Shown here: piece by piece, positions 7,483 to 24,551 of the stretch
How positions within the stretch are numbered: position 1 is the first letter of the stretch
Layout: every line of letters begins with the position of its first letter
Source: an uncultured Gammaproteobacteria bacterium
Lineage (GTDB): Bacteria; Patescibacteriota; Microgenomatia; UBA12405
Reading direction: 5' to 3'
Length of the DNA stretch: 41,052 nucleotides
NCBI GenBank assembly: GCA_964637525.1
Contig: CAZWUG010000002.1
Location: 1-41,052 of the forward strand
Program-made: the position numbers and the translations under genes
The notes under the pieces: generated by a model
Database searches by the model: none
What the model saw: only the letters and a program-made list of their open reading frames with translations
What the model was told of the DNA's origin: nothing

Positions 7483-8802
7483 ATGGCAGAAAATCAAAAT
7501 GATTTAGTCAGCAAAATCATCAGCCTTTGCAAACGCAGAGGAATTATTTTTCAAAATTCTGAAATTTATGGCGGTGTTCAAGGTTTTTATGATTATGGCC
7601 CTATCGGTTCTCAAATGAAATTAAATTGGAAAAATATTTGGTGGCAAGACAATGTCATCAAACGCCGTGATGTTGTCGGTATTGATGGTTCAATTATCAC
7701 TCATCCTACAGTCTGGCAAGCTTCCGGTCATGTCAAAAATTTTGCCGATATTATGGTGGAATGTAAAAAATGTCACAAACGATTTCGCCCTGATTTACTT
7801 AATGATCCATCCATTTGTCCCGAATGTGGCGGAGAATTTACCCAAGGTCGAAAATATAATATTTTATTTGAAACCGAAATTGGAGTTATCGAAGGGGAAA
7901 AACTTCATGCTTATTTGCGGGGAGAAGCCTGTCAAACAATATATCTAGACTTTAAAAATATTGTTGATTCCACTCGTGTCAAAATACCATTTGGTATTGC
8001 TCAAATCGGAAAAGCATTTCGTAATGAGATAACGCCAAAAAACTTCCTTTATCGTACCCGCGAGTTTGAACAATGGGATATCCAATATTTTGTCCATCCA
8101 ACTGAAATGGATAAATGGTTTGAATATTGGAAAGAAAATCGTCTTAATTGGTACAAATCACTTTTCAATAATGCCGAAAACCTCCGCTTTAGAGAACACG
8201 CTTCAGACGAATTAGCTTTTTATGCCAAAAAAGCTTTTGACATTGAATACCAAGCTCCTTGGGGTTGGGCCGAAATGGAAGGAATCCATTGGCGTTCTGA
8301 TTATGACTTAACCCAACATTCCAAATTCAGCGGTCAAGATCTTTCCTATACTGATCCGGTTACTCACGAAAAATATCTTCCTTGGATTACTGAAAGCTCA
8401 GGAGGAGTTGATCGAAGCTTTTTCTTTATGCTTTTAGACGCTTATCGTGAGGAAACTATTCCTAGCGGAGAAATCAGAACTTATCTAAAAATTAATCCAA
8501 AAATTGCTGCTTACAAAATAGCCGTTATTCCCTTAGCTGCCAACAAACCGGAATTAATCGAAAAAGCTGAAGCTATTTTTCAGAAACTTAACTTAAAATA
8601 TTCTGTCGATTGGGATGATAGCAGCAACATCGGTAAAAAATACCGCCGCCAAGACGAAATCGGTACCCCATGGTGTTTAGTCGTCGATTATCAAACTTTA
8701 GAAGACAATACTGTCTCTATTCGTGACCGCGATACCATGGAACAAATTCGGGTTAATGCTGATGAAATTGACACCTGGCTCGAAAAAAGGTTAAATAGTT
8801 AA
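7483..8802 (+). CDS. glyQS: Glycine--tRNA ligase, homodimeric class II type
   Basis: IFQNSEIYGGVQGFYDYGPIG, GKAFRNEITP and FEQWDIQYF motifs plus a C-terminal anticodon-binding domain (GKKYRRQDEIGTPWCLVVD). About 440 aa. Confidence 0.95.
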   Translation: MAENQNDLVSKIISLCKRRGIIFQNSEIYGGVQGFYDYGPIGSQMKLNWKNIWWQDNVIKRRDVVGIDGSIITHPTVWQASGHVKNFADIMVECKKCHKRFRPDLLNDPSICPECGGEFTQGRKYNILFETEIGVIEGEKLHAYLRGEACQTIYLDFKNIVDSTRVKIPFGIAQIGKAFRNEITPKNFLYRTREFEQWDIQYFVHPTEMDKWFEYWKENRLNWYKSLFNNAENLRFREHASDELAFYAKKAFDIEYQAPWGWAEMEGIHWRSDYDLTQHSKFSGQDLSYTDPVTHEKYLPWITESSGGVDRSFFFMLLDAYREETIPSGEIRTYLKINPKIAAYKIAVIPLAANKPELIEKAEAIFQKLNLKYSVDWDDSSNIGKKYRRQDEIGTPWCLVVDYQTLEDNTVSIRDRDTMEQIRVNADEIDTWLEKRLNS

Positions 8803-8803
8803 T

Positions 8804-9505
8804 ATGAATAAAACTAAATTCCTCTCATTAGCCCTGGTAATTTTGGCTTCATCATTTTTTCTTTCCGGCTGTGGCAAAAAAACCACTACCAAACCTACCA
8901 CTAACACCACCCAAAAACCTACTGCCCAATTAGTTCTCTCCGAATCAGAAAAACCCATAATTTCTTTAATTCCTCGAGCTGATGGTCATGAACTAAAACT
9001 AAAATTAGACAATATCCCTTCAAATATCAATCAAATTGATTATGAATTAATTTACTCCGCCAGCGATAATGGTTTAGTTATGGAAAAAGGTGTTGGTGAC
9101 ACTCTCAAAATCACTTCTAAAACACTTGAAAAGGATTTGCTTTTGGGTACTGCCAGCTGCACCAATGGTTGTAAGTACAAATATGATGAAGGTGTTAATA
9201 GCGGCACATTATCCTTAACTCTTTATACCTCAGAAAACCAAAGCGCTACTTTTGAAACTCCTTTTGTGTTATTAACCTCTGCTGATATCAAAAAAGATGG
9301 TGGTTTTAAACTTACTACCGAAGATTTTTCAGTCAAGGCTACCACTACCACCAAAAGCGATTATTTCACCGTCATCAAAAACTACCCTTCATATTATTCT
9401 GTTTTTTCTAGCGGGTCTGGAGCCGGAAAAATTTCCACCATCACTCCTAATACCATTACCAAAACAGACATGGCAAGTCTTGTTGGCAACTACCAAACCA
9501 ATTAA
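8804..9505 (+). CDS. Putative lipoprotein, hypothetical
   Basis: Signal peptide with lipobox FFLSGC, followed by a Thr/Pro/Lys-rich linker. No recognisable domain. Confidence 0.6.
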   Translation: MNKTKFLSLALVILASSFFLSGCGKKTTTKPTTNTTQKPTAQLVLSESEKPIISLIPRADGHELKLKLDNIPSNINQIDYELIYSASDNGLVMEKGVGDTLKITSKTLEKDLLLGTASCTNGCKYKYDEGVNSGTLSLTLYTSENQSATFETPFVLLTSADIKKDGGFKLTTEDFSVKATTTTKSDYFTVIKNYPSYYSVFSSGSGAGKISTITPNTITKTDMASLVGNYQTN

Positions 9506-10380
9506 TGGAATTTCATACTCCGGTACTTCTTAAAGAAACTGTAGAGGCTTTAACTGTACTACCAGACAAAACCTATATCGATGCCACTCTCGGACACGGC
9601 GGCCATACTATTGAAATATTAAAACTCGGAGGTGAAGTTTACGGTTTCGATCAGGATCCTAAAAATCTTGAAATTGCCACCAATAGAATTGCTAATCTTG
9701 GCTTATCCCAAAAATTTCACCCCATCCACGCCAATTTCAATCAAATCAAAATTATTTTTAATCAACAAATTAAAAACAAAGTTGATGGGCTACTGGCCGA
9801 TTTAGGGCTAAGCCAAAGTCAACAAACAGCCGAAAATAGGGGATTTTCATTTAACGATCCTTTATCTCTGGATATGCGTCTTGATCCTCAATCTCACAAC
9901 TTAACTGCCGAAATTATCATCAATACCTATTCTTTTGAAGATCTTTACCAAATTTTTACCAAATACAGTCAGGAACTTTATTCTAAACCACTCATTCTTA
10001 GAATTATTCGCGAAAGACAAAAAAGCCCAATCAAATCCGGAACAAGATTAGCTAATATTATTAAAGATTATTACCGGGAACATCATCTTAAGTCAAAAAT
10101 TAACCCTGCCACCAAAATTTTTATGAGTTTACGCATTGCTGTTAACGATGAATTTAAAAATTTGTCGGAGTTATTAAGCCAAAGTTTATCTATAATCAAA
10201 CCAAACGGGATTGCCGCTATTATTACTTTTCATTCCGGAGAAGATAGAATTGTCAAAAATTTTTGTTTAGAAAATAAAGATCAAATAATTCCGTCCAAAC
10301 CAATCAGACCAAGCTTTACTGAAACCAAACACAACCCACTATCTCGTTCAAGTATCCTCAGATTGTATAAAATAAGGTAA
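9505..10380 (+). CDS. rsmH: 16S rRNA (cytosine1402-N4)-methyltransferase RsmH (MraW)
   Basis: HTPVLLKETVEAL, YIDATLGHGGHT, DLGLSQSQ and FHSGEDRIVK motifs. It heads the dcw cluster. TAATG overlap with the upstream gene. Confidence 0.95.
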   Translation: MEFHTPVLLKETVEALTVLPDKTYIDATLGHGGHTIEILKLGGEVYGFDQDPKNLEIATNRIANLGLSQKFHPIHANFNQIKIIFNQQIKNKVDGLLADLGLSQSQQTAENRGFSFNDPLSLDMRLDPQSHNLTAEIIINTYSFEDLYQIFTKYSQELYSKPLILRIIRERQKSPIKSGTRLANIIKDYYREHHLKSKINPATKIFMSLRIAVNDEFKNLSELLSQSLSIIKPNGIAAIITFHSGEDRIVKNFCLENKDQIIPSKPIRPSFTETKHNPLSRSSILRLYKIR

Positions 10381-10634
10381 TGCCAAAATTTTTTATTATC
10401 ACTATTGCTGCTTGTTTAATTATCCAAATATTCTTTTCCTTTTTCTATTCCAGTCAAATTCTTACTCAAAACAATCAGCTCAACCAAAGTCAAACCGGTA
10501 TCGATCAGTTGACCTTAGAAATAGAAAGCCTTCAAAAACAAGCTGCAGATTTGTCATCAATTAGCCATCTCAATCTTAGCACTCCCTCGGCCTCCTTTAA
10601 ATTTATTAATAAATCGCTAACCATTAACCAATAA
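10380..10634 (+). CDS. FtsL-like small bitopic division protein (assigned by position and architecture)
   Basis: 84 aa with one N-terminal TM helix and then a Q/L-rich coiled-coil-like segment. It sits between rsmH and ftsI, with TAATG overlaps on both sides. Confidence 0.45.
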   Translation: MPKFFIITIAACLIIQIFFSFFYSSQILTQNNQLNQSQTGIDQLTLEIESLQKQAADLSSISHLNLSTPSASFKFINKSLTINQ

Positions 10635-12283
10635 TGTCTCGTTATCGAATTATTCTCACTAGTTTTTTAATTTGTTTTTTTATTATCACCTGCCGACTTT
10701 TTTATTGGCAAGTGATAAAAAGCTCTGAATATGGGCCAAAAGCCACCAATCAAACATATAAAATGAATATTAATAAAGCTACTCGGGGACAAATTTATTC
10801 CTCAGACGAATTTCCATTGGTCGTCAATCAAACCGATTACCTTATCTCTCTCTATAAACCCAACTTAAAAGACGAATTAGAATCAGTTTATCAGCAGATT
10901 GAACAAATTCACCCCAGGTTTATTCAACAAAACCAAATTATTCTAGATTCATTCAAAAACAATAATCAGCAAAAATGGATCGATCTAAATACCCTCTTCA
11001 GTCAAACTGAATCCAGTCAGCTTGCCCAAATTCCGGGAGTTAGTGTCAGTCAACTTAAATCACGTTATTACCCCGAAAACAATCTCGCCAAAAACATTCT
11101 CGGTTTCGTTGCCAAAGATTCTCAAGGCAACTACATCGGTTATGGCGGATTAGAAAGTTACTACAACAAACAATTGCAGGGTAAAACCGGTTTTTCCTGG
11201 GGCCCGCAAGATGGCACCGGAAAAACTATACTAACCAAAAAAAGCTGGCACATTCCAGCTTATGATGGAAATAATCTCTATACTTCAATTAATCGTGCCG
11301 TTCAATATTTAGTTGAACAAACCATTACTCAAGGAGTTGAAAAATATCAAGCCGATTCTGGTTCAGTCAGTGTTATGGAAAGCAGTACTGGCCGAATCAT
11401 TGCTATGGCCAGTGTTGCCGCTACCTCTTCTGCCACTCCCAGTGCTTCAAGAAACCCGGCCATTTCCGATTTATTTGAACCAGGATCAATTTTTAAACCA
11501 ATTATTATGACTATGGCACTAGATCAAAAATCAATTAACCCTGACTTTGTTTGTACCGACTGTTCCCACCCAAGAACCATAGGGGAGTACACCATTGGAA
11601 ATTGGGACAATTCCCTCAACCCGGATTCTACCCTAAAAGACATTATAAAAAATTCCGATAACATCGGAATGAGTTATATCATTACTCAATTAGGTTTAGA
11701 AAATTTCCTTAAATATTACAAGGAACTTGGTCTTAACCAAAAAACCGGAATCGATCTTCAGGGAGAATCGCGACCTATTCTCAAAACCTCTTGGCCGGAA
11801 ATAGATTTAGCCACAGCTTCTTTCGGTCAGGGAATTGTTGTCACTCAAATCAATATGCTTCAATCATTTAACACTATCGCCAATGATGGTCTGTTAGTCC
11901 AGCCAACTGTAGTTGATTACTACACTAATTATTTAAATAATAAATTAATTCCCAAAAAGATCCCGGCCCAACAAGTTTTTTCTCAAAATTCAATTAACGA
12001 AATTAAACAAATCCTCAAATATGCCGTCGAAAATGGAGTTGTCAACCAATTTAGACCCAAAGACCTTGAAGTTTGTGCCAAAAGCGGTACCGCTCAAGTA
12101 GCTGTCAAAGGATCTTACACTGATTCTTCTACTATTGCCTCATATATCGGATTTACTCCATGTAACCATCCAAAATTTACTATGATAGTAACTATAAATA
12201 ATCCCCGGTCATCACCTTGGGGATCAAGCACTGCCGCTCCTGTTTGGTATGAGCTAGCTTCAAAGATTACACGTTTGTTATAA
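10634..12283 (+). CDS. ftsI: Penicillin-binding protein 2/3 family transpeptidase (FtsI-like)
   Basis: N-terminal TM anchor and dimerisation domain, plus transpeptidase motifs SxxK (GSIFKP), SxN (NSDNIG) and KSG (AKSGTAQ). Confidence 0.9.
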   Translation: MSRYRIILTSFLICFFIITCRLFYWQVIKSSEYGPKATNQTYKMNINKATRGQIYSSDEFPLVVNQTDYLISLYKPNLKDELESVYQQIEQIHPRFIQQNQIILDSFKNNNQQKWIDLNTLFSQTESSQLAQIPGVSVSQLKSRYYPENNLAKNILGFVAKDSQGNYIGYGGLESYYNKQLQGKTGFSWGPQDGTGKTILTKKSWHIPAYDGNNLYTSINRAVQYLVEQTITQGVEKYQADSGSVSVMESSTGRIIAMASVAATSSATPSASRNPAISDLFEPGSIFKPIIMTMALDQKSINPDFVCTDCSHPRTIGEYTIGNWDNSLNPDSTLKDIIKNSDNIGMSYIITQLGLENFLKYYKELGLNQKTGIDLQGESRPILKTSWPEIDLATASFGQGIVVTQINMLQSFNTIANDGLLVQPTVVDYYTNYLNNKLIPKKIPAQQVFSQNSINEIKQILKYAVENGVVNQFRPKDLEVCAKSGTAQVAVKGSYTDSSTIASYIGFTPCNHPKFTMIVTINNPRSSPWGSSTAAPVWYELASKITRLL

Positions 12284-12298
12284 TAAATAACCTTTTAA

Positions 12299-13585
12299 AT
12301 GCTCCAAAAACTTAAAAACATCCTCATTCACTTCCCCAAGGCTATTTTCTACCAATACCTATATGGTCAACCATCAAAAAAGTTAACTTTGATAGGCGTT
12401 ACCGGAACAGACGGTAAAACCAGCACCTCCAATTTAATTTATGAGATTTTATTAAAATCAGGGATCAAAGCCGGAGTCATCACCACTATCAATGCCAAAT
12501 ATGGAGACAAAGAAATTGATACCGGGCTACATTTAACCAGTCCCGACCCATCTTTAGTCCAAAAAATACTCAAAGAAATGTTAGATAACGAAGTTACTCA
12601 TGTTGTTTGTGAAGTTACCGCCCATGCTCTTGATCAATATCGTTTTTACGGTTGTTATTTTCAAATAGCCTTGATCACCAATACCTCACACGAACATTTG
12701 GACTATTTCCATAATATGGATAATTATATTAAAACTAAAGGGAAAATATTTGATCAAGCCAAAATAGCCATTTTAAACAAAGACGATCAATCATTTAAAT
12801 ATCTCTCTCAAAAAATGCCTAAATTTATATCATATAGTATCAAAAATAAATCCGATTTTCAGGCAAAAAATATAAAAATAACCCCGGATGAAATGAAATT
12901 TTCAGTCAATCATCTCAATATTATCACCGATACCATTTTTCGTTATCAAATATACAACATCCTGTCCGCTTTAAGCGTAATTTCCCAACTAAAAATTGAC
13001 CCAAAATATTTAATTGAAACTGTCAAAGAATTCCCTTTAATTAAAGGCCGCCGCGAAGAAGTTCAAAATAATTTTGATATAAAAGCTATTATCGATTTTG
13101 CTCATACTCCCAACGCTATCAAAAACACTCTCTCGTCACTTAAAGAAATTAAAAAAGCTAAAATTATTGCTATTTTTGGTGCCACTGGTGGTCGTGATCC
13201 CAGCAAACGCCCGGAGATGGGTTTAGTTACTTCTCAATTAGCTGATATTGCTATCATTACTTCCGACGACACTAGAAACGAAAAAGTAGCAGATATTAAT
13301 AAACAAATAATTAGCGGTATCCCTTCAAATAGTATTTTTATTGAAACAGATAATTTAACCCAAATCAAAAAAATTATTAAAAACAATTCTGATAAATTTA
13401 TTTATTTCAATATCCCTAACCGCCAGGATGCTTTTAATTTAGCTATTAAACTGGCCCAGGCCAAAGATATTGTCATCGCTATGGGCAAAGGTCATGAAAC
13501 CAGCATCCTCCATGGTAACACTGAGTATCCCTGGTCAGAAAGCCAGGCCTTCCGCTTAGCCTTTAATTTAAAAAACAAATCTTAA
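12299..13585 (+). CDS. murE: MurE-like Mur ligase (UDP-MurNAc-L-Ala-D-Glu:diamino acid ligase family) lacking the usual N-terminal domain
   Basis: P-loop GVTGTDGKTS, CEVTAHALDQYRF, TSHEHLDYFHNMDNYIKTKGKIF and ITSDDTRNE (the position of the MurE DNPR motif). The P-loop starts at about aa 34, whereas typical MurE has about 100 preceding residues. In-frame stops directly upstream (taataa at 12284-12289, taa at 12296-12298) exclude a longer ORF. Confidence 0.8.
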   Translation: MLQKLKNILIHFPKAIFYQYLYGQPSKKLTLIGVTGTDGKTSTSNLIYEILLKSGIKAGVITTINAKYGDKEIDTGLHLTSPDPSLVQKILKEMLDNEVTHVVCEVTAHALDQYRFYGCYFQIALITNTSHEHLDYFHNMDNYIKTKGKIFDQAKIAILNKDDQSFKYLSQKMPKFISYSIKNKSDFQAKNIKITPDEMKFSVNHLNIITDTIFRYQIYNILSALSVISQLKIDPKYLIETVKEFPLIKGRREEVQNNFDIKAIIDFAHTPNAIKNTLSSLKEIKKAKIIAIFGATGGRDPSKRPEMGLVTSQLADIAIITSDDTRNEKVADINKQIISGIPSNSIFIETDNLTQIKKIIKNNSDKFIYFNIPNRQDAFNLAIKLAQAKDIVIAMGKGHETSILHGNTEYPWSESQAFRLAFNLKNKS

Positions 13586-13587
13586 GT

Positions 13588-14184
13588 ATGCTTTCATTCA
13601 ATCTTAAACCCAAGGGGACTATTGAAGCAAATTACCATAATGGTTTGCTCCCCCAAAGAAATAAGCCTCAATTTTGGTATCAAGACACCAGTAGCCGATC
13701 TAACTTAAGCAATTTTCAATTAAGTTCAGAAAACCGGCGCATTTTAAATAAAACTCAAGAATTTACCTATGAAATAATCACTCTAACCAATTTCTCTTTC
13801 ACTCCAAAAACTCAAAAACAAATTTTTTCTTGGCTAAAAGAGCTTAACTGGGACTTCCCGATAAGTTCAGTCAAATCAATTTTTACCAACCATATTTTTA
13901 ATTATCTTTATATCTGGAAAGATTCATTTGGAGAAGTTATTGCTTACTCAATTTGTTATTTTTCCAGCTCCATTAGTCATATAGCTTACGTTTTTTACCA
14001 ACCGGAATACAGCCACGGCAACTTACCCATTCGCTTAGTTCTCCAAACTGTCATCGACAGCCATGATAAGGGTTTAAGTTATTGCTATTTAGGCCGTTTT
14101 TCTTCAGACACCGGTTTCTACAAACGCAACATGCCCGGTTTCGAATATTTTAAAGTTAACAAATGGATCAAATATGAAAAATAA
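13588..14184 (+). CDS. Bpt/ATE-like aminoacyl-tRNA--protein transferase-fold protein (ATE_C-like)
   Basis: GEVIAYSICYFSSSISHIAYVFYQPEYSHGNLPIRLVLQTVIDSHDKGLSYCYLGRFSSDTGFYKRNMPGFEYFKVNKW aligns by eye to the C-terminal domain of bacterial Bpt / arginyltransferase (...SAIYTFYDP...SLG...YLYLGY...KMSYK..., from memory). The Cys-rich ATE_N part is absent. It starts 2 nt after the murE-like stop. Confidence 0.6.
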   Translation: MLSFNLKPKGTIEANYHNGLLPQRNKPQFWYQDTSSRSNLSNFQLSSENRRILNKTQEFTYEIITLTNFSFTPKTQKQIFSWLKELNWDFPISSVKSIFTNHIFNYLYIWKDSFGEVIAYSICYFSSSISHIAYVFYQPEYSHGNLPIRLVLQTVIDSHDKGLSYCYLGRFSSDTGFYKRNMPGFEYFKVNKWIKYEK

Positions 14185-14190
14185 TTTTGC

Positions 14191-14213
14191 TATTTACTAC
14201 TTACTAATAGCTA
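14191..14213 (+). repeat. 23-nt AT-rich intergenic motif, copy A (TATTTACTACTTACTAATAGCTA)
   Basis: Matches 15619-15641 at 21 of 23 positions. It is followed by the perfect 14-nt palindrome TAGCTAATTAGCTA (14208-14221), which ends 3 nt before the ATG at 14225. Confidence 0.7.
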
Positions 14214-14224
14214 ATTAGCTAAAC

Positions 14225-15601
14225 ATGCATATTCACATTCTTGGCATTGCCGGCACTATGACCTCTCAGTTGGCTGTTGAGTTAAAAAAACAAGGGAATT
14301 TCATTTCCGGATCTGATCAAGAAAAGATATTTCCACCCATTAGTACTATTCTCAAAAAAAACCACATTCCTACAAACAAAGTTGAAATTAGTTCCCAAAT
14401 AAACCTGGCTATCATTGGGTCTTCATACCATCTTTTTAAAAACACTCAAAATGAATTTAACCAAATTAAAAAGCTTAAAATACCCTATATTTCTGCCACT
14501 GAATATGTCAGCCAAAATATCGCCAAGAAAAATTCTATCATAATTGCCGGAAGTTTCGGTAAAACTACTATAACTAGCCTCACTTCCTGGATTCTGTCTC
14601 ACACCAATTTGCAACCAAGTTACATGTTTGGCGGTATTCCTAAAAATAAATTTACCCCCCTTAAGATAAATTCATCTGACTGGTCAATCATAGAAGGTGA
14701 CGAATCTATTCACGGACTAGATAAAAAAGCTAAATTTCTTTATTATCCGGTTAAATACCTTTTGGTTACCGCCGCCGACTGGGAACACAAAGATTCATAT
14801 TCTAGTCAAAATCTCAATTTCAATGCCTTCAAAAATCTGGTCACAAAATTACCTTCAGATGGGTTTTTAATCATTAATCAACAAAAAAACAGCGCTGTTA
14901 AACTCCAACAATACTCATCGGCAAAAGTCATCACCTACAACACCCCCCAATCAAATTATTTTCTAGAAAAAACTATTCGTCACCAAAATTACACTACTCT
15001 CATCATTCATACCCCTAATGGTCTGATAAAACTCAATACTACCCTTATCGGCCAATTTAATTTTGAAAATATTTTAGCCTCAGTCTGTATTTGTGACAGT
15101 TTAGGAATTAACCCACACCTTATTTCTAAATCAGTCTTCTCCTATCGAGGTGTTCGCGGCCGTCTTGAATTAATCACCTCTCTTAAAAATGTTCTTTTTT
15201 TTGAAGATTTCGCCCAATCAAAAGATAGGATATCATCCACCATTAATTCCTTAAAAAATCACTTTCCCAATCATCGGATTAAAATTCTTTTCCAACCACA
15301 CGCTTCTTTTAGCCAATACAAAAGTAGCCTTTGCCAACTTCAAACTGCCTTTGACCAAGCCGACGAAGTGGTTCTAACCCAACTTAAATTTAACCCCAAT
15401 ATAAATAAAAAAAATAGGATTACTGCCAAAGATTTCCGAAACTGCCTTGGACAAAAATTAGTTTATCTTCCTCTAAAACGACAGATTTTAGAGTATTATA
15501 AAAAGAGTTTAATGCCAAATGATATTTTAATTTACATGAGTTCAGGGGGACTTGAAGGCAAACGTATTTTCAAGTCAATCATTAAATCTTTCAAAAAATA
15601 A
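14225..15601 (+). CDS. Mur ligase, Mpl/MurC-like (UDP-N-acetylmuramate:peptide or L-alanine ligase)
   Basis: N-terminus HIHILGIAGTMTSQLAVELKKQGNFISGSDQEKIFPPIS resembles Mpl (HILGICGTFMGG...GSD..YPPMS) more than MurC (GIGGIGMS). P-loop AGSFGKTT. Central and C-terminal Mur ligase domains are present. Confidence 0.75.
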   Translation: MHIHILGIAGTMTSQLAVELKKQGNFISGSDQEKIFPPISTILKKNHIPTNKVEISSQINLAIIGSSYHLFKNTQNEFNQIKKLKIPYISATEYVSQNIAKKNSIIIAGSFGKTTITSLTSWILSHTNLQPSYMFGGIPKNKFTPLKINSSDWSIIEGDESIHGLDKKAKFLYYPVKYLLVTAADWEHKDSYSSQNLNFNAFKNLVTKLPSDGFLIINQQKNSAVKLQQYSSAKVITYNTPQSNYFLEKTIRHQNYTTLIIHTPNGLIKLNTTLIGQFNFENILASVCICDSLGINPHLISKSVFSYRGVRGRLELITSLKNVLFFEDFAQSKDRISSTINSLKNHFPNHRIKILFQPHASFSQYKSSLCQLQTAFDQADEVVLTQLKFNPNINKKNRITAKDFRNCLGQKLVYLPLKRQILEYYKKSLMPNDILIYMSSGGLEGKRIFKSIIKSFKK

Positions 15602-15618
15602 TTAATATGTTCCTCTCT

Positions 15619-15662
15619 TATTTACTAATTACTACTAGCTACTTGCTAATAGCTATTTACTA
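15619..15662 (+). repeat. AT-rich intergenic motif, copy B (23-nt copy 15619-15641) plus a partial second copy (GCTAATAGCTA 15645-15655, TATTTACTA 15654-15662)
   Basis: TATTTACTAATTACTACTAGCTA has 2 mismatches against copy A at 14191-14213. It lies in the only other spacer of the mur operon, directly upstream of murA. Confidence 0.7.
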
Positions 15663-15666
15663 ATTT

Positions 15667-16995
15667 ATGTCTAGGTATATCATTAATGGCGGCAAAGAAT
15701 TACATGGTGAAGTTTCCATTCGTGGAGCCAAAAACGCCAGTTATAAACAAATCATTGCTTCAATTCTCAGCGATCAACCAACCGAACTTAGTAACATCCC
15801 AACCATATCGGATGTAAAAATTACTGAAAGTATTGCCAAAAGTCTCGGGGCTAACATCAAATATTGTGGCCAACATTGTCTCAATATCTCTACTCCAAAA
15901 ATTACCAAATCAATAGTTCCCATAGGTACCGGAGAGAAATCACGAACCTCTTTCATGTTTGCCGCACCCCTACTAGCCCGCACCGGCACTGCTATTGTTC
16001 CTATTCCCGGTGGGGATAAACTTGGAGCCCGACCTCTTGATCGTCTTTTCGATTGTTTTTCTCAAATGGGAATTACCACTGAACTTAATGATAGAACTAT
16101 AACTTTCAATACCGACAAAATAAAACCTGTTAATTACACTTTCAATAAACCAAGTCACACTGTTACCGAAACTATTATTATGACTGCCGTTTTTGCTGAT
16201 GGCCAAACTATCCTTAATAATACCGCCTGCGAACCGGAAGTTGACGATCTCATCTCTATGCTAAATAGTATGGGGGCCAATATTCGTCGGGACAATTCCA
16301 ACCCCCAAAAAATCATTATCGATGGCGTTAAGAGCCTTTCTGGTACCAAACACCGAATAATTTCTGATCGAAATGAAGTCGTTACTTTTGCCTGTGCTGC
16401 TTTAACTACCAAAGGTTCAGTTAATATCCTTCATTGTAACCCTGAAATAGTCAAAACATTTATTGAAACCATCGATAAAATGGGTGCAAAAACAATTGTC
16501 GGCAATGATGAACTGAGTGTTTCTTGGGTCAAACCCCTTAAAAATATTGATATTGAAACTGGACCGGAACCTGGTTTTATGACTGATTGGCAAGCTGTTT
16601 TTAGTGTCCTTTTAACTCAAACTGTTGGGCCTAGTTCTATCATTGAACGAGTTTACCCTTCTCGTTTTCAACATATCGAAAATCTCAAAAAAATGGGCGT
16701 CAGGGTGGCTTTTTTTAATCCCCAAATAGATAATCCTCACACTTATTATGAATTCAATTGCGATAGCGACAAACAGGAATATTTTCATGGCGTAAAAATC
16801 TATGGGCCAACCCAGCTAAAACCATCTAATTTTACCGTTAACGATCTTCGGGCCGGGGCTTCAACAGTCTTAGCCGCCCTAACTGCCAATGGTATTTCAA
16901 CTATTGACGGTGTTGAATATATCGAAAGGGGATATGAAAAATTGGGTGAAAGATTATCCGCTTTGGGTGCTAACATAGAATATATAAAAACATAA
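15667..16995 (+). CDS. murA: UDP-N-acetylglucosamine 1-carboxyvinyltransferase MurA (Asp in place of the catalytic-loop Cys)
   Basis: IRGAKNA, PGGDKLGARPLDRL, MTDWQ and NDLRAGAS motifs, 442 aa. Codon GAT 16015-16017 occupies the position of E. coli Cys115. Confidence 0.95.
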   Translation: MSRYIINGGKELHGEVSIRGAKNASYKQIIASILSDQPTELSNIPTISDVKITESIAKSLGANIKYCGQHCLNISTPKITKSIVPIGTGEKSRTSFMFAAPLLARTGTAIVPIPGGDKLGARPLDRLFDCFSQMGITTELNDRTITFNTDKIKPVNYTFNKPSHTVTETIIMTAVFADGQTILNNTACEPEVDDLISMLNSMGANIRRDNSNPQKIIIDGVKSLSGTKHRIISDRNEVVTFACAALTTKGSVNILHCNPEIVKTFIETIDKMGAKTIVGNDELSVSWVKPLKNIDIETGPEPGFMTDWQAVFSVLLTQTVGPSSIIERVYPSRFQHIENLKKMGVRVAFFNPQIDNPHTYYEFNCDSDKQEYFHGVKIYGPTQLKPSNFTVNDLRAGASTVLAALTANGISTIDGVEYIERGYEKLGERLSALGANIEYIKT

Positions 16996-16996
16996 T

Positions 16997-18031
16997 ATGA
17001 TTCACTTATACTTAGGGCTTTTACTTTTTTCTTTTTTAGTCACCAGCCTTCTGGTCGTTCCTTTTATCAACCTTCTTTATAAACTTAAATTCCAACGGCA
17101 ACTTCAAAAAACCACTGATTTTCAAAATAAACGAACTCCTATCTTCGACAAATTTCACAACCCAAAAGTGGGAACTCCTGTTGGAGGTGGACTGCTTATC
17201 ATTATTTCAGTCTGTATCCTCTTTCTTATTCTTTTCCCCATTATTAAATTTTCTAAAATCTTTATTTCCGCCAATTATCAGATAGTCCACGAACTATCAA
17301 TTATCTTTTTTACATTTATAAGTTTTGGCTTATTAGGTTTATATGATGATATTTACAAATTTTTTGGCTTCAAACAAACCGGTTTTTTTGGTCTTAAAAT
17401 GACCCATAAACTAATTCTTCAAATCATCCTTGCCGGAATTACCTCTTTTTTAATTTACACCCAATTAAAAATTGATTTTATCTATATTCCTTTTCTGGGA
17501 GCTATCCACCTGGGTTGGTTGTTTATTCCCATAGCCACTTTAATTATTGCCGGATTTGCCAATTTCTTTAACATTACCGACGGACTTGACGGATTGTCCG
17601 GAGGTCTTTTAATGATTGCTCTTTTTGCTTTTTGGTTTCTTTCAAACACTTCACTCGACACTCCCATCTCTATTTTCCTTTCACTTTGGATTGGAGCCTT
17701 AATCGCATTTCTTTATTTCAATATCCATCCTGCTCGTATCATCATGGGCGATGTCGGAGCCCTTTCTTTTGGAGCTACATTTGCTGTTATAGCTCTAATG
17801 TTGGGTAAAATAGTCCCATTTATTATCGTTGGCTCACCCTTTATAGTTGAAGGTTTAAGTAGTGCCATTCAGATAATTAGTAAAAAATACTTTCATAAAA
17901 AAGTTTTTCCCGCAGCTCCGCTTCATCTAACCTTACAAAATATTGGTTGGGAAGAACCAAAAATTGTTGCCCGGGCCTGGTTAGCCGGTATTATTTTAGC
18001 TATTTTCGGATTATGGCTGGGACTAAACTAA
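16997..18031 (+). CDS. mraY: Phospho-N-acetylmuramoyl-pentapeptide transferase MraY
   Basis: Polytopic membrane protein with GLLGLYDD, NFFNITDGLDGLSGG and MGDVGALSFGA motifs. Confidence 0.95.
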   Translation: MIHLYLGLLLFSFLVTSLLVVPFINLLYKLKFQRQLQKTTDFQNKRTPIFDKFHNPKVGTPVGGGLLIIISVCILFLILFPIIKFSKIFISANYQIVHELSIIFFTFISFGLLGLYDDIYKFFGFKQTGFFGLKMTHKLILQIILAGITSFLIYTQLKIDFIYIPFLGAIHLGWLFIPIATLIIAGFANFFNITDGLDGLSGGLLMIALFAFWFLSNTSLDTPISIFLSLWIGALIAFLYFNIHPARIIMGDVGALSFGATFAVIALMLGKIVPFIIVGSPFIVEGLSSAIQIISKKYFHKKVFPAAPLHLTLQNIGWEEPKIVARAWLAGIILAIFGLWLGLN

Positions 18032-18588
18032 TCGATAAGCTCAAACAAGAGGCTGATCATTATCTCAACCTTCCTTACATGATTAATCTTGTCCGTGAAG
18101 GGAAAATTATCAAAGAAAGATTTCTCGGAGGCAAAGGGAACTGGAAAGATATTCAAAAAGAAGTTAAAAGACTCGCCAAAGAAGAGAAAATTAACTTAGT
18201 CAAACTTTCTCCTCAGGAACTTTATAACTTTCAAAAAAAACACAAAATCGGTATTGATTGTTCCGGTTTAGCCACCCAATTACTTATTTTTTATGGTAAT
18301 TTAATCAATAAAAAGGTCACTTTAAATCCCCGAAAAACATCGGCCGAAATGCTTACTTCTGCCCCTTTATCCCAAAAGATTATCGATTTTGATTTGATTC
18401 AACCAGGAGATTTAATCCGTCAAAAAAACGGTAAACACGTCCTGTTTATAACCCAAAAAAGAGGCAAAATAATTGACTACATTGACAGTTCATTCGACAG
18501 CCGCGGAGTCAAATACGGCCAAGCCAACATCTCCGACCCACTTTTTGATAACCAAGGCATCTTCCGGCTTAATCAACTCAGTAATTAA
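18013..18588 (+). CDS. NlpC/P60 (C40)-like cysteine peptidase, no signal peptide
   Basis: KIGIDCSGLATQL (catalytic Cys context) and PGDLIRQKNGKHVLFI (catalytic His context). ATG 18013 (MAGTKLIDKL...) is preferred over the TTG at 17947, which lies deep inside mraY. No hydrophobic N-terminus. Confidence 0.5.
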   Translation: MAGTKLIDKLKQEADHYLNLPYMINLVREGKIIKERFLGGKGNWKDIQKEVKRLAKEEKINLVKLSPQELYNFQKKHKIGIDCSGLATQLLIFYGNLINKKVTLNPRKTSAEMLTSAPLSQKIIDFDLIQPGDLIRQKNGKHVLFITQKRGKIIDYIDSSFDSRGVKYGQANISDPLFDNQGIFRLNQLSN

Positions 18589-18759
18589 TTATTTTTCCTC
18601 TATCAACTCTCTGTATTGCAACGGATCAATTGAAAGAATTTCAATTTCAGTGCCGCACTCCTCACATTCCAAAATATCACCCAGCATCATCCCTTCGGAC
18701 TGTTTAATTTCTTCCCCGCAGTCAGGACAAATTATCTTATTTATTTGTGTTTGTGTCAT
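18589..18759 (-). CDS. LysW-like zinc-ribbon protein (amino-group carrier protein family-like), 56 aa
   Basis: Hand translation of the minus strand gives MTQTQINKIICPDCGEEIKQSEGMMLGDILECEECGTEIEILSIDPLQYRELIEEK. It has a CxxC...CxxC ribbon and a GDILECEECGTEIEILSIDPL core as in LysW/ArgW, but the tail ends EEK rather than EDWGE. It is below the 60-aa ORF-track cutoff. Confidence 0.6.
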   Translation of the reverse strand: MTQTQINKIICPDCGEEIKQSEGMMLGDILECEECGTEIEILSIDPLQYRELIEEK

Positions 18760-18800
18760 CTAAGTAAAAAATATATAATTGCTTAAAGCTAATCCATTAT

Positions 18801-19622
18801 ATGACAAATACACCCTTAGTTAAAATAGATAACTTTTATCTCAAAAGAGAAGATCAAAACATCACTGGTTCTGCCAAAGACCGGGCCATGCCTTTTCAAA
18901 TTGCCAATCTTAAAAAATTAGGTTTCACCCAAGCCGTTATTTCCAGCACCGGCAATGCCGCCATTTCTGCCGCTCATTTTTGCCATGAAAACAATATTAA
19001 TTTAACCATTTTCCTTTCTTCAAATATCTCTCCCTCGAAGTTAGCCGTTTTAAAACAATTTGATCATGAAATTATTTTTTCTCTTCAACCCATTAGTAAC
19101 GCTATAAAATTTTCCAAAGCCAACCACGCTTATCTTTTGCGACAATCTACTGATCCTTCAGCCCTAGAAGGGTATAGTCAAATCGCCCAAGATTTAATTA
19201 CTCAATTACCTCAAACTACCAGCATTTTTATTCCTATCGGCAGCGGTACCACTTTAATTGGTATTTCCCAAAAACTTTCTAAAACAGTTAAAATTTTTGG
19301 CGCCCAATCAAGTGCCAATCCCACCATAAGCAAATTATTCGATGATCAATTTACCCCGGAAAACAGACTAATTACCCATGCTTTATCAGCCAAATTTCTG
19401 CCTCAAAAAAAGGCAGTTATTGAAACTATTAAGGATAGTCAAGGATATTGTTTTACCATCCAAAACGAAGCTATTATTTATGCCGGTTCATATTTAGAAT
19501 CTCAGGGAATAATTACCTCCCTCGAAAGTGCCCTAGCTTTTGCCGCTTATCAAAAAGCCATAAAAAATAATTTTGAAATAGGGGAATACCCTGTTATTTT
19601 ATTAACCGGGACCAAAAGATGA
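18801..19622 (+). CDS. Fold-type II PLP-dependent enzyme (threonine synthase / cysteine synthase-like, PALP family)
   Basis: TPLVKIDNFYLKREDQNITGSAKDRA (PLP lysine context), SSTGNAAISAA, IPIGSGTTLIGI glycine loop, and a C-terminal LESALAFAAY..VILLTGT. At 273 aa it is short for ThrC. Confidence 0.7.
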   Translation: MTNTPLVKIDNFYLKREDQNITGSAKDRAMPFQIANLKKLGFTQAVISSTGNAAISAAHFCHENNINLTIFLSSNISPSKLAVLKQFDHEIIFSLQPISNAIKFSKANHAYLLRQSTDPSALEGYSQIAQDLITQLPQTTSIFIPIGSGTTLIGISQKLSKTVKIFGAQSSANPTISKLFDDQFTPENRLITHALSAKFLPQKKAVIETIKDSQGYCFTIQNEAIIYAGSYLESQGIITSLESALAFAAYQKAIKNNFEIGEYPVILLTGTKR

Positions 19623-20791
19623 TCCAAAAAAATTTTGATATTTTCAACAACTCACCTTATTCATTTTATTTTTTAGTTGTCGACCAATTTTTAGATATTT
19701 CTTTACCTCAACTCAAAAATTTTCATCTAATTTATGCCTCCAAAAATAAAAACCTCAAAAATATTAAAAACCCCTATTTCTGTCTTGAAGAACAGGGGAT
19801 TAAGCTATCAGAAAAAAATAGCGGCAAATTACTTTCCTCCCCAAAAGTCATTGAATATATTAGACAAACTTCAACCGTTAACCACCTTCAGGTAGTCATT
19901 ATCCCTTTTAAACCATCTGCAAAAATTGAATATATTTGCCAACAATTTAATTGGATTAATGCCGCTGTTTCTTCAAAACTTAACCGTTTTTTAGAAGATA
20001 AAAATCAATTCTCCACTTTTTGCCAAAAACATAAACTTCCTATTATTCCTTCATCTTTAGACTCTTTTAATCAGCAAAATTTTCTCAAAAATCAACAAAA
20101 ATTTTCTCAAAAATTAGTTATCCAATCACATTTCGGTTGGGCCGGGAACAGTACTTTTTCTGCCGATAATTGGGATGATATTCAAAATTCTTTCCCCAAA
20201 GACACAAGAGTGAAATTTTCTCCGTTTATTTCGGGGTACTCTCTTACGAACAATTGTTGTTTAACCAAAAAAGGGTTAGTCCAAAGTCAACCGGCACTCC
20301 AACTTACCGGCATTAAACCATTAACTCAAAACCCCTTTGCTACCGTCGGTCGCCAATGGCCGTCAATGTCTCCCCCAAAAGTTACTCATCAACTTTCTAA
20401 AGTTACCTTAAAATTTGCCAAATTAATTAAAAAACTTGGTTATCAAGGATTCTTTGGTTTAGATTTTTTAGTTGACCAAAACTATCAAGTTTATCTACTT
20501 GAATGCAACCCCCGACTCACCGCCTCTTTTGCTTTTTATACCCAATTAGAACTCAACCAAGGGCTATTCCCTTTATTTTTACTCCACCTGGCCCAATTTA
20601 TTAAACTTTCTTCAATCCCCAAATCCAAACAAATTCAACTAAAAATAAACTCGGCTAACATTACCGGAACCGAAATTACTCAAAAAAATAATAGTCGGAC
20701 TATTGCCAAATACCAACAACTCCAGCCGGTTAGCTCTCAAACAAATCCTGTTATTATCCCCCAAAAAATAATCGATCAGTTGCATGGCTAA
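19619..20791 (+). CDS. ATP-grasp domain ligase, unknown substrate
   Basis: LGYQGFFGLDFLVDQNYQVYLLECNPRLTASF is a typical ATP-grasp Mg/ATP-binding C-terminal motif (E-x-N-x-R). It is not Ddl-like or RimK-like by eye. ATGA overlap with the PLP enzyme gene. Confidence 0.7.
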   Translation: MIQKNFDIFNNSPYSFYFLVVDQFLDISLPQLKNFHLIYASKNKNLKNIKNPYFCLEEQGIKLSEKNSGKLLSSPKVIEYIRQTSTVNHLQVVIIPFKPSAKIEYICQQFNWINAAVSSKLNRFLEDKNQFSTFCQKHKLPIIPSSLDSFNQQNFLKNQQKFSQKLVIQSHFGWAGNSTFSADNWDDIQNSFPKDTRVKFSPFISGYSLTNNCCLTKKGLVQSQPALQLTGIKPLTQNPFATVGRQWPSMSPPKVTHQLSKVTLKFAKLIKKLGYQGFFGLDFLVDQNYQVYLLECNPRLTASFAFYTQLELNQGLFPLFLLHLAQFIKLSSIPKSKQIQLKINSANITGTEITQKNNSRTIAKYQQLQPVSSQTNPVIIPQKIIDQLHG

Positions 20792-21950
20792 TTCAAAAAA
20801 AAATTCATTTATCAGTCTTATCTTTATTCTTATTTCAATTGGTTTTACTTTTATTTCCATTTCTTCTCTTACAGAAGCCAACAACACCGCCGGAGACAGA
20901 TTTTATTTTCTCAGAAAACAAGGATTTTGGATTCTTATTAGCCTTGTCGCTTTTTATTTTTTTTCCAAAATTAAACTTGAATTAGTCAAGAAATTCTCCG
21001 GCGTATTTTATGCTTTTTCCCTCATCTGTCTGATTTTAGTTTTAATCCCCGGTTTTAGTAACTCTATTCTTGGAGCCAGGAGATGGTTAAATCTTGGAAT
21101 TTTTAGTTTCCAACCTTCTGAACTTTTAAAACTCAGCTCCGTTATTTACTTTGCCAATTTATTTTCTCAGGATTCAAAAAGAAATTTAACTAATTTACTT
21201 ATCTACCTTATCGGCCCTTTTTTCTTAATTATTTTGGAACCAAATTTAAGCACAGCCATCTTAATATTTACTATTTCAATTTCTATGTTTTACCTATCCG
21301 GTGGCAAAATAATACCAATATTTACTCTCTGTATTAGTTTCATAATTTTAGCTTTTATTTTAGTCGTTACCTCACCATATCGCCTTAATCGCCTTCAAAC
21401 TCTCATCAATCCACAAGAGTCAGAGTCGTCTTATCATAGTAATCAAATAATTCTCTCTCTTTCATCCGGTGGAATTTTTGGCAAAGGCTTTGCTAACTCA
21501 GACCAAAAATACCGATTTCTTCCTAAAATATCAACAGACTCAATTTTAGCCATAATTGGCGAAGAAATGGGATTTTTTGGCATCATCAGCATAATTACTA
21601 TCTACACTTATCTAATTATTTACCTGATAAAAACTTCTTCCCTGATAAAAGACCAATTTTCCTCATTAATTATGGCCGGTACCGCTTGTTGGATTGGTTT
21701 TCAAGCTCTAATCAATATTGCCGCCATTGCCAATATAATTCCCTTGACCGGAGTCCCTTTACCCTTCATTTCCTACGGAGGATCATCATTAGTTACTCTT
21801 ATGGTTGCTATCGGCCTAACTTATAATATCGAAAAGAAATATCGATTATTGGTATACTCTGATTATGACCAAAAGGATACTGCTCACCGGCACTCATCTC
21901 ACCCCCGCCCTAGAACTCATTCGCCAACTCCAACAAGATCAAAAAATTAA
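20784..21950 (+). CDS. ftsW: SEDS-family peptidoglycan glycosyltransferase FtsW
   Basis: Polytopic protein with RRWLNLGIFSFQPSELLKL, DSILAIIGEEMGFFG and PLTGVPLPFISYGGSS motifs, in the dcw position. Its His/Pro/Arg-rich tail overlaps the murG start. Confidence 0.9.
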   Translation: MANSKKNSFISLIFILISIGFTFISISSLTEANNTAGDRFYFLRKQGFWILISLVAFYFFSKIKLELVKKFSGVFYAFSLICLILVLIPGFSNSILGARRWLNLGIFSFQPSELLKLSSVIYFANLFSQDSKRNLTNLLIYLIGPFFLIILEPNLSTAILIFTISISMFYLSGGKIIPIFTLCISFIILAFILVVTSPYRLNRLQTLINPQESESSYHSNQIILSLSSGGIFGKGFANSDQKYRFLPKISTDSILAIIGEEMGFFGIISIITIYTYLIIYLIKTSSLIKDQFSSLIMAGTACWIGFQALINIAAIANIIPLTGVPLPFISYGGSSLVTLMVAIGLTYNIEKKYRLLVYSDYDQKDTAHRHSSHPRPRTHSPTPTRSKN

Positions 21951-22950
21951 TTGGCAAATAAGCTATATCGGTCGGGAATCAAGTTCAAATGAACCAAAAA
22001 ATACCTCTATAGAATCAAATACTATCCCTGCTACCGGAGTTAATTTTTATTCCATCCCTTGCGGCAAATTTGACAGAAGATACCTTCCCAACACTTTAGT
22101 CGGAATCCCAAAAACTATTTTGGGATTTTTAAAAAGTTTTAAGTTAATCAACGCCATTAAGCCAAATATTGTGGTTTCTTTTGGTGGCTATGTCTCAGTC
22201 CCGGTCATTATTGTTTCTTTTATCAAAAGAATCAAAACTATCACTCATGAACAAACTTTAACCAATAGTCTAACCACTAAAATCAATAGCCATTTTGTCA
22301 CCAAAGTTGCTCTTTCATTTAATAACCAAAATCAAATTGCTGCTCTGCCAAAAAATAAAGTTGTTATTACCGGCAACCTCCTCCGCTACCAACTATTCCA
22401 AAAACAATTAACAATTCCAAAAGGCTTAAAGCTAAAAGCTAATAAGCTAATCACTATTTACATTACTGCCGGAAACCAAGGGTCACATCATCTTAATTTA
22501 ATTATCAAAAAAATTATTCCTAACCTTAATAATTACAATATTATCCATCAAACAGGTAAAATTGATTTGGATTATTTCAAAAAAATAAGCCAAAAGAAAA
22601 CCAATTATTTTGCCTCAAATTATTTTGACACTAACGATTTTAGTTGGATAATCAATAATTCACAAATTGTCATTAGCAGATCTGGTGCCAACACCAGTCA
22701 AGAAATTGTCGCCCTGCACAAAAAGTCTATTCTAATTCCCTTACCCAAAAGCCAACAAGACGAACAACTCCTCAATGCTCTTTGGGTAAAAGATCAAATT
22801 CCGGAAACAATTATAATTAAAGACCAAGACCTGACCCCCAAAAAACTCTTAAATTCCATTCAACAAATCTCTCAAACCAACATTAAACCCCACCATCAAA
22901 CCCACCAACCAAACAATAAACTATTACAATTAATTCATGAAGTTGTCTAA
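21865..22950 (+). CDS. murG: Undecaprenyldiphospho-muramoylpentapeptide beta-N-acetylglucosaminyltransferase MurG (divergent)
   Basis: GT28 architecture: N-terminal RILLTGTHLTPALEL (degenerate G-loop 1), VVSFGGYVSVP, SRSGANTSQEI and QDEQLLNA (the position of the MurG Q/E nucleotide-sugar motif). In the dcw position after ftsW. Confidence 0.8.
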   Translation: MTKRILLTGTHLTPALELIRQLQQDQKINWQISYIGRESSSNEPKNTSIESNTIPATGVNFYSIPCGKFDRRYLPNTLVGIPKTILGFLKSFKLINAIKPNIVVSFGGYVSVPVIIVSFIKRIKTITHEQTLTNSLTTKINSHFVTKVALSFNNQNQIAALPKNKVVITGNLLRYQLFQKQLTIPKGLKLKANKLITIYITAGNQGSHHLNLIIKKIIPNLNNYNIIHQTGKIDLDYFKKISQKKTNYFASNYFDTNDFSWIINNSQIVISRSGANTSQEIVALHKKSILIPLPKSQQDEQLLNALWVKDQIPETIIIKDQDLTPKKLLNSIQQISQTNIKPHHQTHQPNNKLLQLIHEVV

Positions 22951-23323
22951 AAAAATAATTTTTATCATTTTATCGACATTATTAATTGGTGGTATTTTAT
23001 TTTTTTTCTTTCTCAACCCAAACAAAAATTCATTTAATCCAATTTCTGATAAGAACAGTTTTTATAGTCAGCTCAATTTAGCTCTCAAAACCAGTCAATT
23101 GGAAACTTCTTCCTGGCAAGTTAGAGACTTTATTCATCAAATAGAATTTACCATATCTAACGGTGATAATAATTTTAAAGCTATTTTATCAGACCAAAAA
23201 AGTCCGGTTTGGCAAATTGCATCTTTGCAAGAACTCATTAAAACCGCTAAAATTAATAATCAGTCTCTTAAATTAGTTAATTTAAGCGTGGCTCATCCAT
23301 ATGCAACATTCAAAAATAATTAG
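22937..23323 (+). CDS. Small bitopic membrane protein, FtsQ/DivIB-like by position only
   Basis: 128 aa with a single N-terminal TM helix, lying between murG and ftsA where ftsQ normally sits. It is much shorter than canonical FtsQ and no POTRA domain is recognisable. Confidence 0.4.
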   Translation: MKLSKKIIFIILSTLLIGGILFFFFLNPNKNSFNPISDKNSFYSQLNLALKTSQLETSSWQVRDFIHQIEFTISNGDNNFKAILSDQKSPVWQIASLQELIKTAKINNQSLKLVNLSVAHPYATFKNN

Positions 23324-24548: not shown

Positions 24549-24551
24549 TTT

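Follow-up and report, generated by a model that had tools for sequence, protein, structure and literature searches.

The subject of this study is ORF198, an open reading frame (ORF) that encodes 198 amino acids (aa) and lies in a 41,052-nt stretch of DNA (contig CAZWUG010000002.1 of assembly GCA_964637525.1, positions 1 to 41,052), which at its full length is called the window below. ORF198 sits inside a division and cell wall (dcw) cluster that is complete from rsmH to ftsZ (Table 1). The TAA stop codon of the murE-like gene upstream ends at position 13585 and is followed by two bases (GT) and then by the ATG of ORF198 at position 13588, the same 2-nt gap that was given in a preliminary description of the locus made from the sequence alone. 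We show here that ORF198 is a real but remote homologue of the ATE/Bpt aminoacyl-tRNA transferases, a trimmed and cysteine-less member of that branch. ORF198 or its family homologue at any other locus, designated X in what follows, appears to have been recruited into the synthesis of peptidoglycan precursors.

ORF198 is a real and constrained gene with strong sequence conservation. No overlapping ORF of at least 60 aa was found on its opposite strand, and a search of 5.8 billion proteins identified 554 homologues of the Shapirobacteria type. The 120 homologues listed are 64-83% identical to ORF198 and 177-229 aa long, mostly 196-211 aa, and the names that homologues carry are 'hypothetical protein [Candidatus Shapirobacteria]' at NCBI and 'arginyl-tRNA--protein-N-Asp/Glu arginylyltransferase' at JGI. 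When 28 sequences that are 64-82% identical to ORF198 were aligned, mean column identity was 72% and 71 columns were invariant; within the Shapirobacteria, conservation of X is often equal to or above that of MurE and of the ligase encoded downstream. The signature of the ORF198 family reads SSENRR ... FY.P ... YxYLG ... YK(R)N.PG.E.F ... W. When 1.84 billion cluster representatives (clustering at 50% identity) were searched exhaustively with a profile, 218 clusters were recovered at E<=1e-3, which revealed a wider family of cysteine-poor proteins of 215-275 aa with SSENRR, FY.P, YxYLG, YK and a C-terminal Trp in common; the pattern scanning of this wider family used a narrower alignment, a broader one being too diverse. 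Protein searches further returned 901 proteins for a Magasanikbacteria-type group (Candidatus Magasanikbacteria/Parcubacteria) and 2805 for a group in the Verrucomicrobiae, although the sets of 554, 901 and 2805 matches may overlap.

The preliminary description had likened the C-terminal part of ORF198 by eye to the ATE_C domain of Bpt and ATE1, had pointed to an upstream box resembling the S.sqrR motif of ATE enzymes, and had noted that the Cys-rich ATE_N domain is missing; each peptide quoted there (FQLSSENRRILNK; VIAYS..IAYVFYQPEYSHGNLP..LSYCYLGRF..FYKRNMPGFEYF..W) is present in the ORF198 translation. Comparison with profile hidden Markov models (HMMs) puts the ATE_C resemblance on firmer ground than inspection by eye, and it is weak for ORF198 alone but solid across the family. 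The sole HMMs that match ORF198 are Pfam ATE_C (E 9e-4, 20.3 bits, residues 110-171), which is sub-threshold against a gathering cutoff of 25, and six arginyltransferase models of NCBIfam (E 1.2e-5 to 4e-3), none of which comes near its cutoff (170-267 bits); the best equivalog score, 24.7 bits, compares with a cutoff of 267. Among 45 diverse relatives from the wider family, however, 40 match ATE_C at E<=0.01, the best at 3e-10, and some exceed its gathering score (for example P0128, with 30.5 bits), while 18 match the FemAB-like model Acetyltransf_6. By contrast ATE_N matches neither ORF198 nor any of the 45 relatives, the FemAB model (Pfam PF02388) finds no match in ORF198 even at E<=1, and for the Leu/Phe-tRNA-protein transferase Aat (Pfam PF03588) there is no HMM match and no representative among the 50 structural matches listed. 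Had neither ATE_C nor a Fem-superfamily model given a significant hit, the preliminary description would have counted its proposal as refuted; of the models it named, ATE_C is matched, for ORF198 itself at a sub-threshold score, and ATE_N, FemAB and the Leu/Phe-transferase model are unmatched.

Direct alignment with a canonical Bpt (P0253), recovered by the exhaustive profile search, bears out the other two claims. The residues common to the two proteins are G19, R37, F43, S46, R51, K55, F136, Y167, G169, Y178, K179 and W193 (ORF198 numbering). The segment FQLSSENRRILNK of ORF198 aligns on FQLSRSQKRVLTK of P0253, and the SSENRR box is aligned with SRSQKR of canonical Bpt. Where Bpt has its CxxCxxC stretch (RPHCEHCRGC), ORF198 reads FWYQDTSS, which is Cys-free, and nothing in ORF198 corresponds to the first ~35 Bpt residues. 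When sequences in the PDB were searched with the wider-family profile, ATE1 was reached only at E 0.05 and the two top matches were acetyltransferases (E 0.016-0.036); the only match of the Shapirobacteria profile, a terpene synthase, was set aside as chance. ORF198 thus falls outside the curated ATE/Bpt families (Pfam ATE_N PF04376 and ATE_C PF04377, NCBIfam PRK01305), as judged by domain content, Cys motif and score, and no Pfam or NCBIfam model covers the X family above threshold for ORF198.

An AlphaFold2 model of ORF198, built from the 28-homologue alignment, has a mean local confidence (pLDDT) of 90.5 and a predicted template modelling (TM) score of 0.88. It consists of one GNAT core and a small N-terminal beta subdomain, and not of the two lobes (~330-420 aa) of Fem proteins. 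Every one of the 50 matches listed in a Foldseek comparison with the PDB is an aminoacyl-tRNA transferase. The human, yeast and K. lactis ATE1 structures rank first (E 5.8e-9 to 1e-6, TM 0.63-0.73, the whole query covered), followed by the aminoacyl-phosphatidylglycerol synthase domains of MprF and then by Weissella FemX, which is matched at a TM score of ~0.5. The model therefore has the three-dimensional fold of ATE1; structure prediction, with comparison to FemX and Bpt, had been proposed as a check in the preliminary description. Because the HMM matches at family level, the structural matches and the alignment with Bpt agree, we hold the homology of ORF198 to the ATE/Bpt branch of GNAT-fold aminoacyl-tRNA transferases to be secure.

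X lies between genes for two Mur ligases, as the preliminary description had stated, the upstream one encoding a MurE-subfamily member that scores above cutoff and the downstream one a MurC/Mpl-like ligase that is sub-cutoff. The murE-like gene begins 16 nt after ftsI. The match of its product to TIGR01085 begins at HMM position ~75-92 and its alignment to T. maritima MurE (4bub) at chain residue 95, and in all loci seen MurE is without the entire domain 1. In a second group that resembles the candidate phyla radiation (CPR), MurF (locus L100, 12488-13687, 399 aa) also lacks the N-domain and starts at ~HMM position 70, so that only the MurC/Mpl-like ligase retains a nucleotide-binding N-domain. 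This downstream ligase resembles MurC and Mpl about equally. In the window it scores 221 bits with the murC model and 173 bits with the mpl model, both sub-cutoff, and a Magasanikbacteria-type homologue scores 249.6 and 245.9 bits, respectively; the top PDB matches of the window ligase are 3hn7 and 3eag, of which 3eag is labelled Mpl and 3hn7, though deposited under the MurC name, is presumably also an Mpl, and they score level with MurC entries. At the diaminopimelate (DAP)-recognition position of MurE, DNPR is replaced by DDTR (71 loci; the window has DDTR) or by EDPR/DDPR. The Arg is kept throughout and gives no particular reason to expect a Lys-type wall with bridges.

The context of X was read from 165 fetched loci, covering 10 kb on either side of each X. 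In the Shapirobacteria the gene order is rsmH-(ftsL)-ftsI-murE-X-murC-like-(murA)-mraY-orf177-PALP-ATP-grasp-ftsW-murG in 76 of 76 species-level genomes, as far as the contigs extend, which disposes of the preliminary description's proviso that its proposal would fail if the gene were not syntenic with mur genes in relatives. The inferred distance from the murE stop to the X start has a median of -4 nt (range -14 to +33, n=70), and that from the X stop to the ligase start a median of +4 nt (n=75). The second group, which is low in GC and CPR-like and whose X is ~35% identical, has murE-X-murC-like, with murE upstream in 8/9 loci and a murC-like gene downstream in 4/4. Loci of the Magasanikbacteria type are arranged as ATP-grasp, NlpC/P60-like, mraY, X, murC/mpl-like, (NUDIX), PALP, where mraY is upstream in 19/20 and the ligase downstream in 18/20; a MurC/Mpl-like ligase is thus found immediately 3' of X in three CPR lineages. 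The Verrucomicrobiae type (GC 0.53-0.63 in most loci) has alr-X, usually with a purD-like ATP-grasp gene just upstream of alr; alr lies at most 1 kb upstream of X in 14/17 loci, and the two genes often overlap by 4 nt, as they do in locus L153, which was studied more closely. In addition, one groundwater population encodes an in-frame fusion of X to a MurC-like ligase (P0122, 645 aa) through a Pro/Ser-rich linker. The fusion was seen on three contigs, and since these are 99.95-100% identical it is counted as a single event. Overall, the link of X to the cell wall is strong and recurs in four lineages.

Two other composite proteins were encountered. An apparent fusion of Alr_C with X (P0301) was rejected as an artefact, its contig being ridden with indels and containing several split genes. 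A distant family member (P0183, 809 aa; locus L084, 10001-12430) is fused to PPDK_N and to a PEP-utilizer domain (swivelling His), a single observation, and a domain-1-less Mur ligase is encoded ~4.4 kb upstream of it. Many of the species-representative genomes that carry X (L001-L007 and others) have 'uncultured Gammaproteobacteria bacterium' as their title. Since they match Shapirobacteria-type CPR genomes both in the genes they contain and in the order of these genes, the submitted taxonomy is probably wrong.

Table 1. Features of the window, with positions counted from its first letter.
Feature	Position	Strand	Remarks
Glycyl-tRNA synthetase (GlyRS)	7483-8802		after recO and before the 233-aa ORF, just upstream of the dcw cluster
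233-aa ORF	8804-9505		lipoprotein-like N-terminus (..LSGCGKK..); no family match; immediately upstream of rsmH
dcw cluster	9505-25721		rsmH, small ftsL-like ORF, ftsI, murE-like, ORF198, MurC/Mpl-like, murA, mraY, 177-aa ORF, PALP, ATP-grasp, ftsW, murG, 128-aa ORF, ftsA, ftsZ
MurE-subfamily ligase	12299..13585	+	428 aa; without N-terminal UDP-binding domain 1; TIGR01085 350.9 bits (cutoff 257.3)
ORF198	13588..14184	+	198 aa, ATG start; putative aminoacyl-tRNA transferase (ATE/Bpt-like, single GNAT, Cys-less)
MurC/Mpl-like ligase	14225..15601	+	458 aa; N-terminal nucleotide-binding domain; Mur_ligase, Mur_ligase_M, Mur_ligase_C
MraY	16997..18031	+	conserved neighbour; directly upstream of X in the Magasanikbacteria-type arrangement
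orf177	18055..18588	+	divergent NlpC/P60-like papain-fold protein; conserved companion
PALP	18801..19622	+	fold-type II pyridoxal phosphate (PLP) enzyme, short, threonine-synthase/dehydratase-like; conserved companion
ATP-grasp ligase	19619..20791	+	no recognisable Ddl; conserved companion
FtsW/RodA-family gene	20784-21950		inside the dcw cluster
1526-aa ORF	26772-31352		no Pfam match at E<=1e-3
FtsW/RodA-family gene	34308-35306		second gene of this family, after ileS

The window has a GC content of ~35% and almost every gene is on the + strand. Its complete rsmH-to-ftsZ cluster contains no murD, murF, ddl or murB, and the canonical murD slot, from mraY to ftsW, is filled by orf177, the PALP gene and the ATP-grasp gene. 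These three are conserved companions of X in both the Shapirobacteria and the Magasanikbacteria-type loci. Weak NLPC_P60 matches were obtained for 7 of 7 orf177 homologues, in which the Cys of a DCSG motif and a His are invariant, and inspection by eye shows no signal peptide at the N-terminus. The idea that the CPR and the Verrucomicrobiae share one three-gene module holds only at superfamily level, as BLASTP detects no homology between their ATP-grasp proteins (E 3.7). The Verrucomicrobial ATP-grasp protein is a purD paralogue (105.9 bits, where the purD cutoff is 288), encoded just upstream of alr-X at 3631-4911 of L153, with equivalents in L119, L133, L134, L141, L148, L150, L157, L160 and L163, and in the lower-GC loci L093 and L147 it directly adjoins X. 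A GlyRS gene is found upstream of the dcw cluster in 63 of the 76 Shapirobacteria loci as well as in the second CPR-like group, which may only be inherited order; it follows recO, a common pairing, and is accordingly given little weight as a hint to the amino acid donor. An Rfam scan found tRNA-Val only.

Among further features of the window, the 233-aa ORF occupies the slot upstream of rsmH where many bacteria have mraZ, and a related contig (L077) has both mraZ and a similar-sized counterpart of this ORF. GC skew in 2-kb windows over positions 1-41052 is persistently negative (-0.008 to -0.31) and approaches zero only at 24-26 kb.

Taken together, we consider it moderately probable that ORF198 is an aminoacyl-tRNA-dependent transferase that acts on an intermediate of peptidoglycan-precursor synthesis. 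We infer the dependence on tRNA from the fold neighbours and the family motifs, while the genomic context points to a peptidoglycan precursor as the target. According to this model, ORF198 would bind the 3' end of an aminoacyl-tRNA, for which the conserved basic residues R24, R37, R50, R51, K55, K179 and R180 are candidate acceptor-end contacts. The aminoacyl-A76 ester would then be attacked by a free amine on a stem-peptide intermediate, and one residue would be added without ATP. The enzyme would share a pathway with the MurE-like ligase encoded upstream and the MurC/Mpl-like ligase encoded downstream, and would probably be physically adjacent to them. Two acceptors may be envisaged. The first, which is Fem-like, would be the side-chain amine of residue 3. 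The second would be the alpha-amine of the N-terminal D-Glu on a peptide that is not yet attached and would later be joined by the Mpl-like ligase; this option fits the preference of ATE/Bpt enzymes for acidic N-termini, the ligase fusion and the gene order. The preliminary description had proposed a Fem-like role in stem-peptide branching or cross-bridge formation. Its premises, homology to ATE/Bpt and linkage to mur genes, stand, but branch or cross-bridge addition is only one of several acceptor options.

In full, the second option is that stem peptides would be assembled or salvaged off the nucleotide, with the ATE-like enzyme supplying position 1. It is suggested by the presence of MurE and MurF enzymes without the UDP-binding domain, of a ligase that is either MurC or Mpl, and of a putatively cytoplasmic NlpC/P60-like companion. 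On this scheme the domain-1-less MurE would make a free gamma-D-Glu-diamino-acid peptide, which in relatives the domain-less MurF would extend. The ATE-like enzyme would next use aminoacyl-tRNA to place an L-amino acid, Ala for example, on the N-terminal D-Glu, canonical ATE/Bpt enzymes being known to recognise N-terminal Asp and Glu. Finally the Mpl-like ligase would couple the finished peptide to UDP-MurNAc, bypassing MurC and MurD. Such a route would make the gene order murE (without its N-domain), ATE-like, mpl-like equal to the order of reactions, and it fits the lack of murD from the complete rsmH-to-ftsZ cluster. Even so, we regard this second option, with its off-nucleotide route, as unlikely.

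Several points weigh against assigning ORF198 to a tRNA-dependent step in wall synthesis. Canonical ATE/Bpt enzymes modify proteins, not wall precursors, and ORF198 by itself remains under the Pfam and NCBIfam cutoffs. The FemAB and Leu_Phe_trans models match 0 of the 45 family members at E<=0.01, and 7 of the 45 have weak matches to Acetyltransf_1, a generic acetyl-CoA GNAT model. A DAP-type Arg such as that retained in MurE usually accompanies, in known bacteria, walls that are unbranched and directly cross-linked. The fusion of X with a MurC-like ligase is known from one population only. Lastly, part of the synteny could be gene order inherited in small, compact genomes; however, X is found in three arrangements in unrelated lineages, all beside enzymes of peptidoglycan-precursor synthesis, which argues against pure inheritance.

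The alternative that retains the wall context is that X is a tRNA-independent GNAT acyltransferase, for example one that transfers an acyl group from acetyl- or acyl-coenzyme A (CoA), or from another activated donor, onto a wall precursor or an amino sugar. The GNAT fold and the peptidoglycan context are compatible with this, as are the Acetyltransf_1 matches and the acetyltransferases at the top of the PDB sequence search. We nevertheless think it improbable, because none of the 50 structural matches listed is a CoA-dependent GNAT and because the ATE-specific S..RR box and YLG...YK are conserved. Moreover, inspection of the sequence reveals no CoA-pyrophosphate motif (motif A of GNATs, Q/R-x-x-G-x-G/A) in the beta4-alpha3 loop, which reads HGNLPIR in ORF198 and NLG.RMM in relatives.

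It is also conceivable that ORF198 is an ordinary, trimmed Bpt-type enzyme of the N-degron pathway that transfers Leu or Arg onto N-terminal Asp or Glu, its place in a mur operon having no functional meaning. The closest models and structures are indeed those of ATE/Bpt, motif residues are common to ORF198 and canonical Bpt, and JGI pipelines label relatives arginyl- or leucyl-transferases. However, both the Cys module and the N-terminal segment of ATE/Bpt are absent, the scores are 10-fold under the equivalog cutoffs, and a chance location is difficult to reconcile with peptidoglycan-precursor neighbours in four lineages, three arrangements and one Mur-ligase fusion. A ClpS-dependent N-degron system, together with demonstrated specificity for N-terminal protein substrates, had been named as a finding that would speak against a wall role; with an E. 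coli ClpS query, no ClpS was found in the window or in the 165 loci, a result that covers the gene neighbourhoods only. We therefore give this explanation little credence. Equally doubtful is an aminoacyl-tRNA transferase with a target other than peptidoglycan, be it a membrane lipid (as for MprF), another envelope polymer or a small metabolite made by the neighbouring PLP and ATP-grasp enzymes. In its favour, MprF domains rank second among the structural classes matched, genes for a PLP enzyme and an ATP-grasp protein recur near X in CPR lineages and Verrucomicrobiae, and one relative is joined to PPDK_N/PEP-utilizer domains. Against it, Mur ligases, MraY and Alr are closer to X and more constant than its other neighbours, the fusion that was assembled repeatedly joins X to a MurC/Mpl-like ligase, and ORF198, unlike MprF, has no membrane segment as read from its sequence and the secondary structure of the AlphaFold2 model.

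ORF198 differs in several respects from the systems it most resembles. With Bpt and ATE1 it shares a GNAT-type fold over all 198 residues, the S..RR box, the FY.P.YS strand and the C-terminal motif YxYLG...YK...P..E...W, yet Bpt has ~240-260 aa and ATE1 ~500, the SSENRR signature is specific to the X family, and the context of X is peptidoglycan synthesis rather than proteolysis. FemX, FemA and FemB together with MurM and MurN are likely functional analogues that belong to the same GNAT superfamily and are also associated with wall-precursor genes. These enzymes, however, have a pair of GNAT lobes and in some cases a coiled coil, whereas ORF198 has a single lobe with its small N-terminal subdomain, derives from another branch of the superfamily and fails every Fem test of sequence and architecture. 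The Mpl-or-MurC ligase, the domain-less MurE and MurF and the NlpC/P60-like companion recall Mpl recycling or a preassembled peptide of the pseudomurein type, although we know of no Mpl route that includes an aminoacyl-tRNA transferase. A further parallel is offered by Enterococcus, where the racemase Racfm and the ATP-grasp D-Asp ligase Aslfm together build a side-chain branch; a PLP enzyme and an ATP-grasp protein likewise stand beside wall genes in all X lineages.

We are aware of no enzyme of the ATE/Bpt branch that has been assigned to peptidoglycan synthesis, and tRNA-dependent steps of wall synthesis are, to our knowledge, known only from FemXAB and MurMN of Gram-positive-type bacteria. 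If our assignment is true, a second, independently recruited branch of the superfamily would mean that translation and wall synthesis are linked in more ways than is now known. The X family is large, extending over Microgenomates, Parcubacteria and Verrucomicrobiae, and a defined role would supersede the labels 'hypothetical' and 'arginyltransferase' that its members now carry. Should the gene be present in a cultivable relative, the Verrucomicrobial members may open the proposed role to experiment. For the uncultivated bacteria of the candidate phyla, whose Mur ligases unusually lack the UDP-binding domain, X would offer a first handle on the chemistry of the wall.

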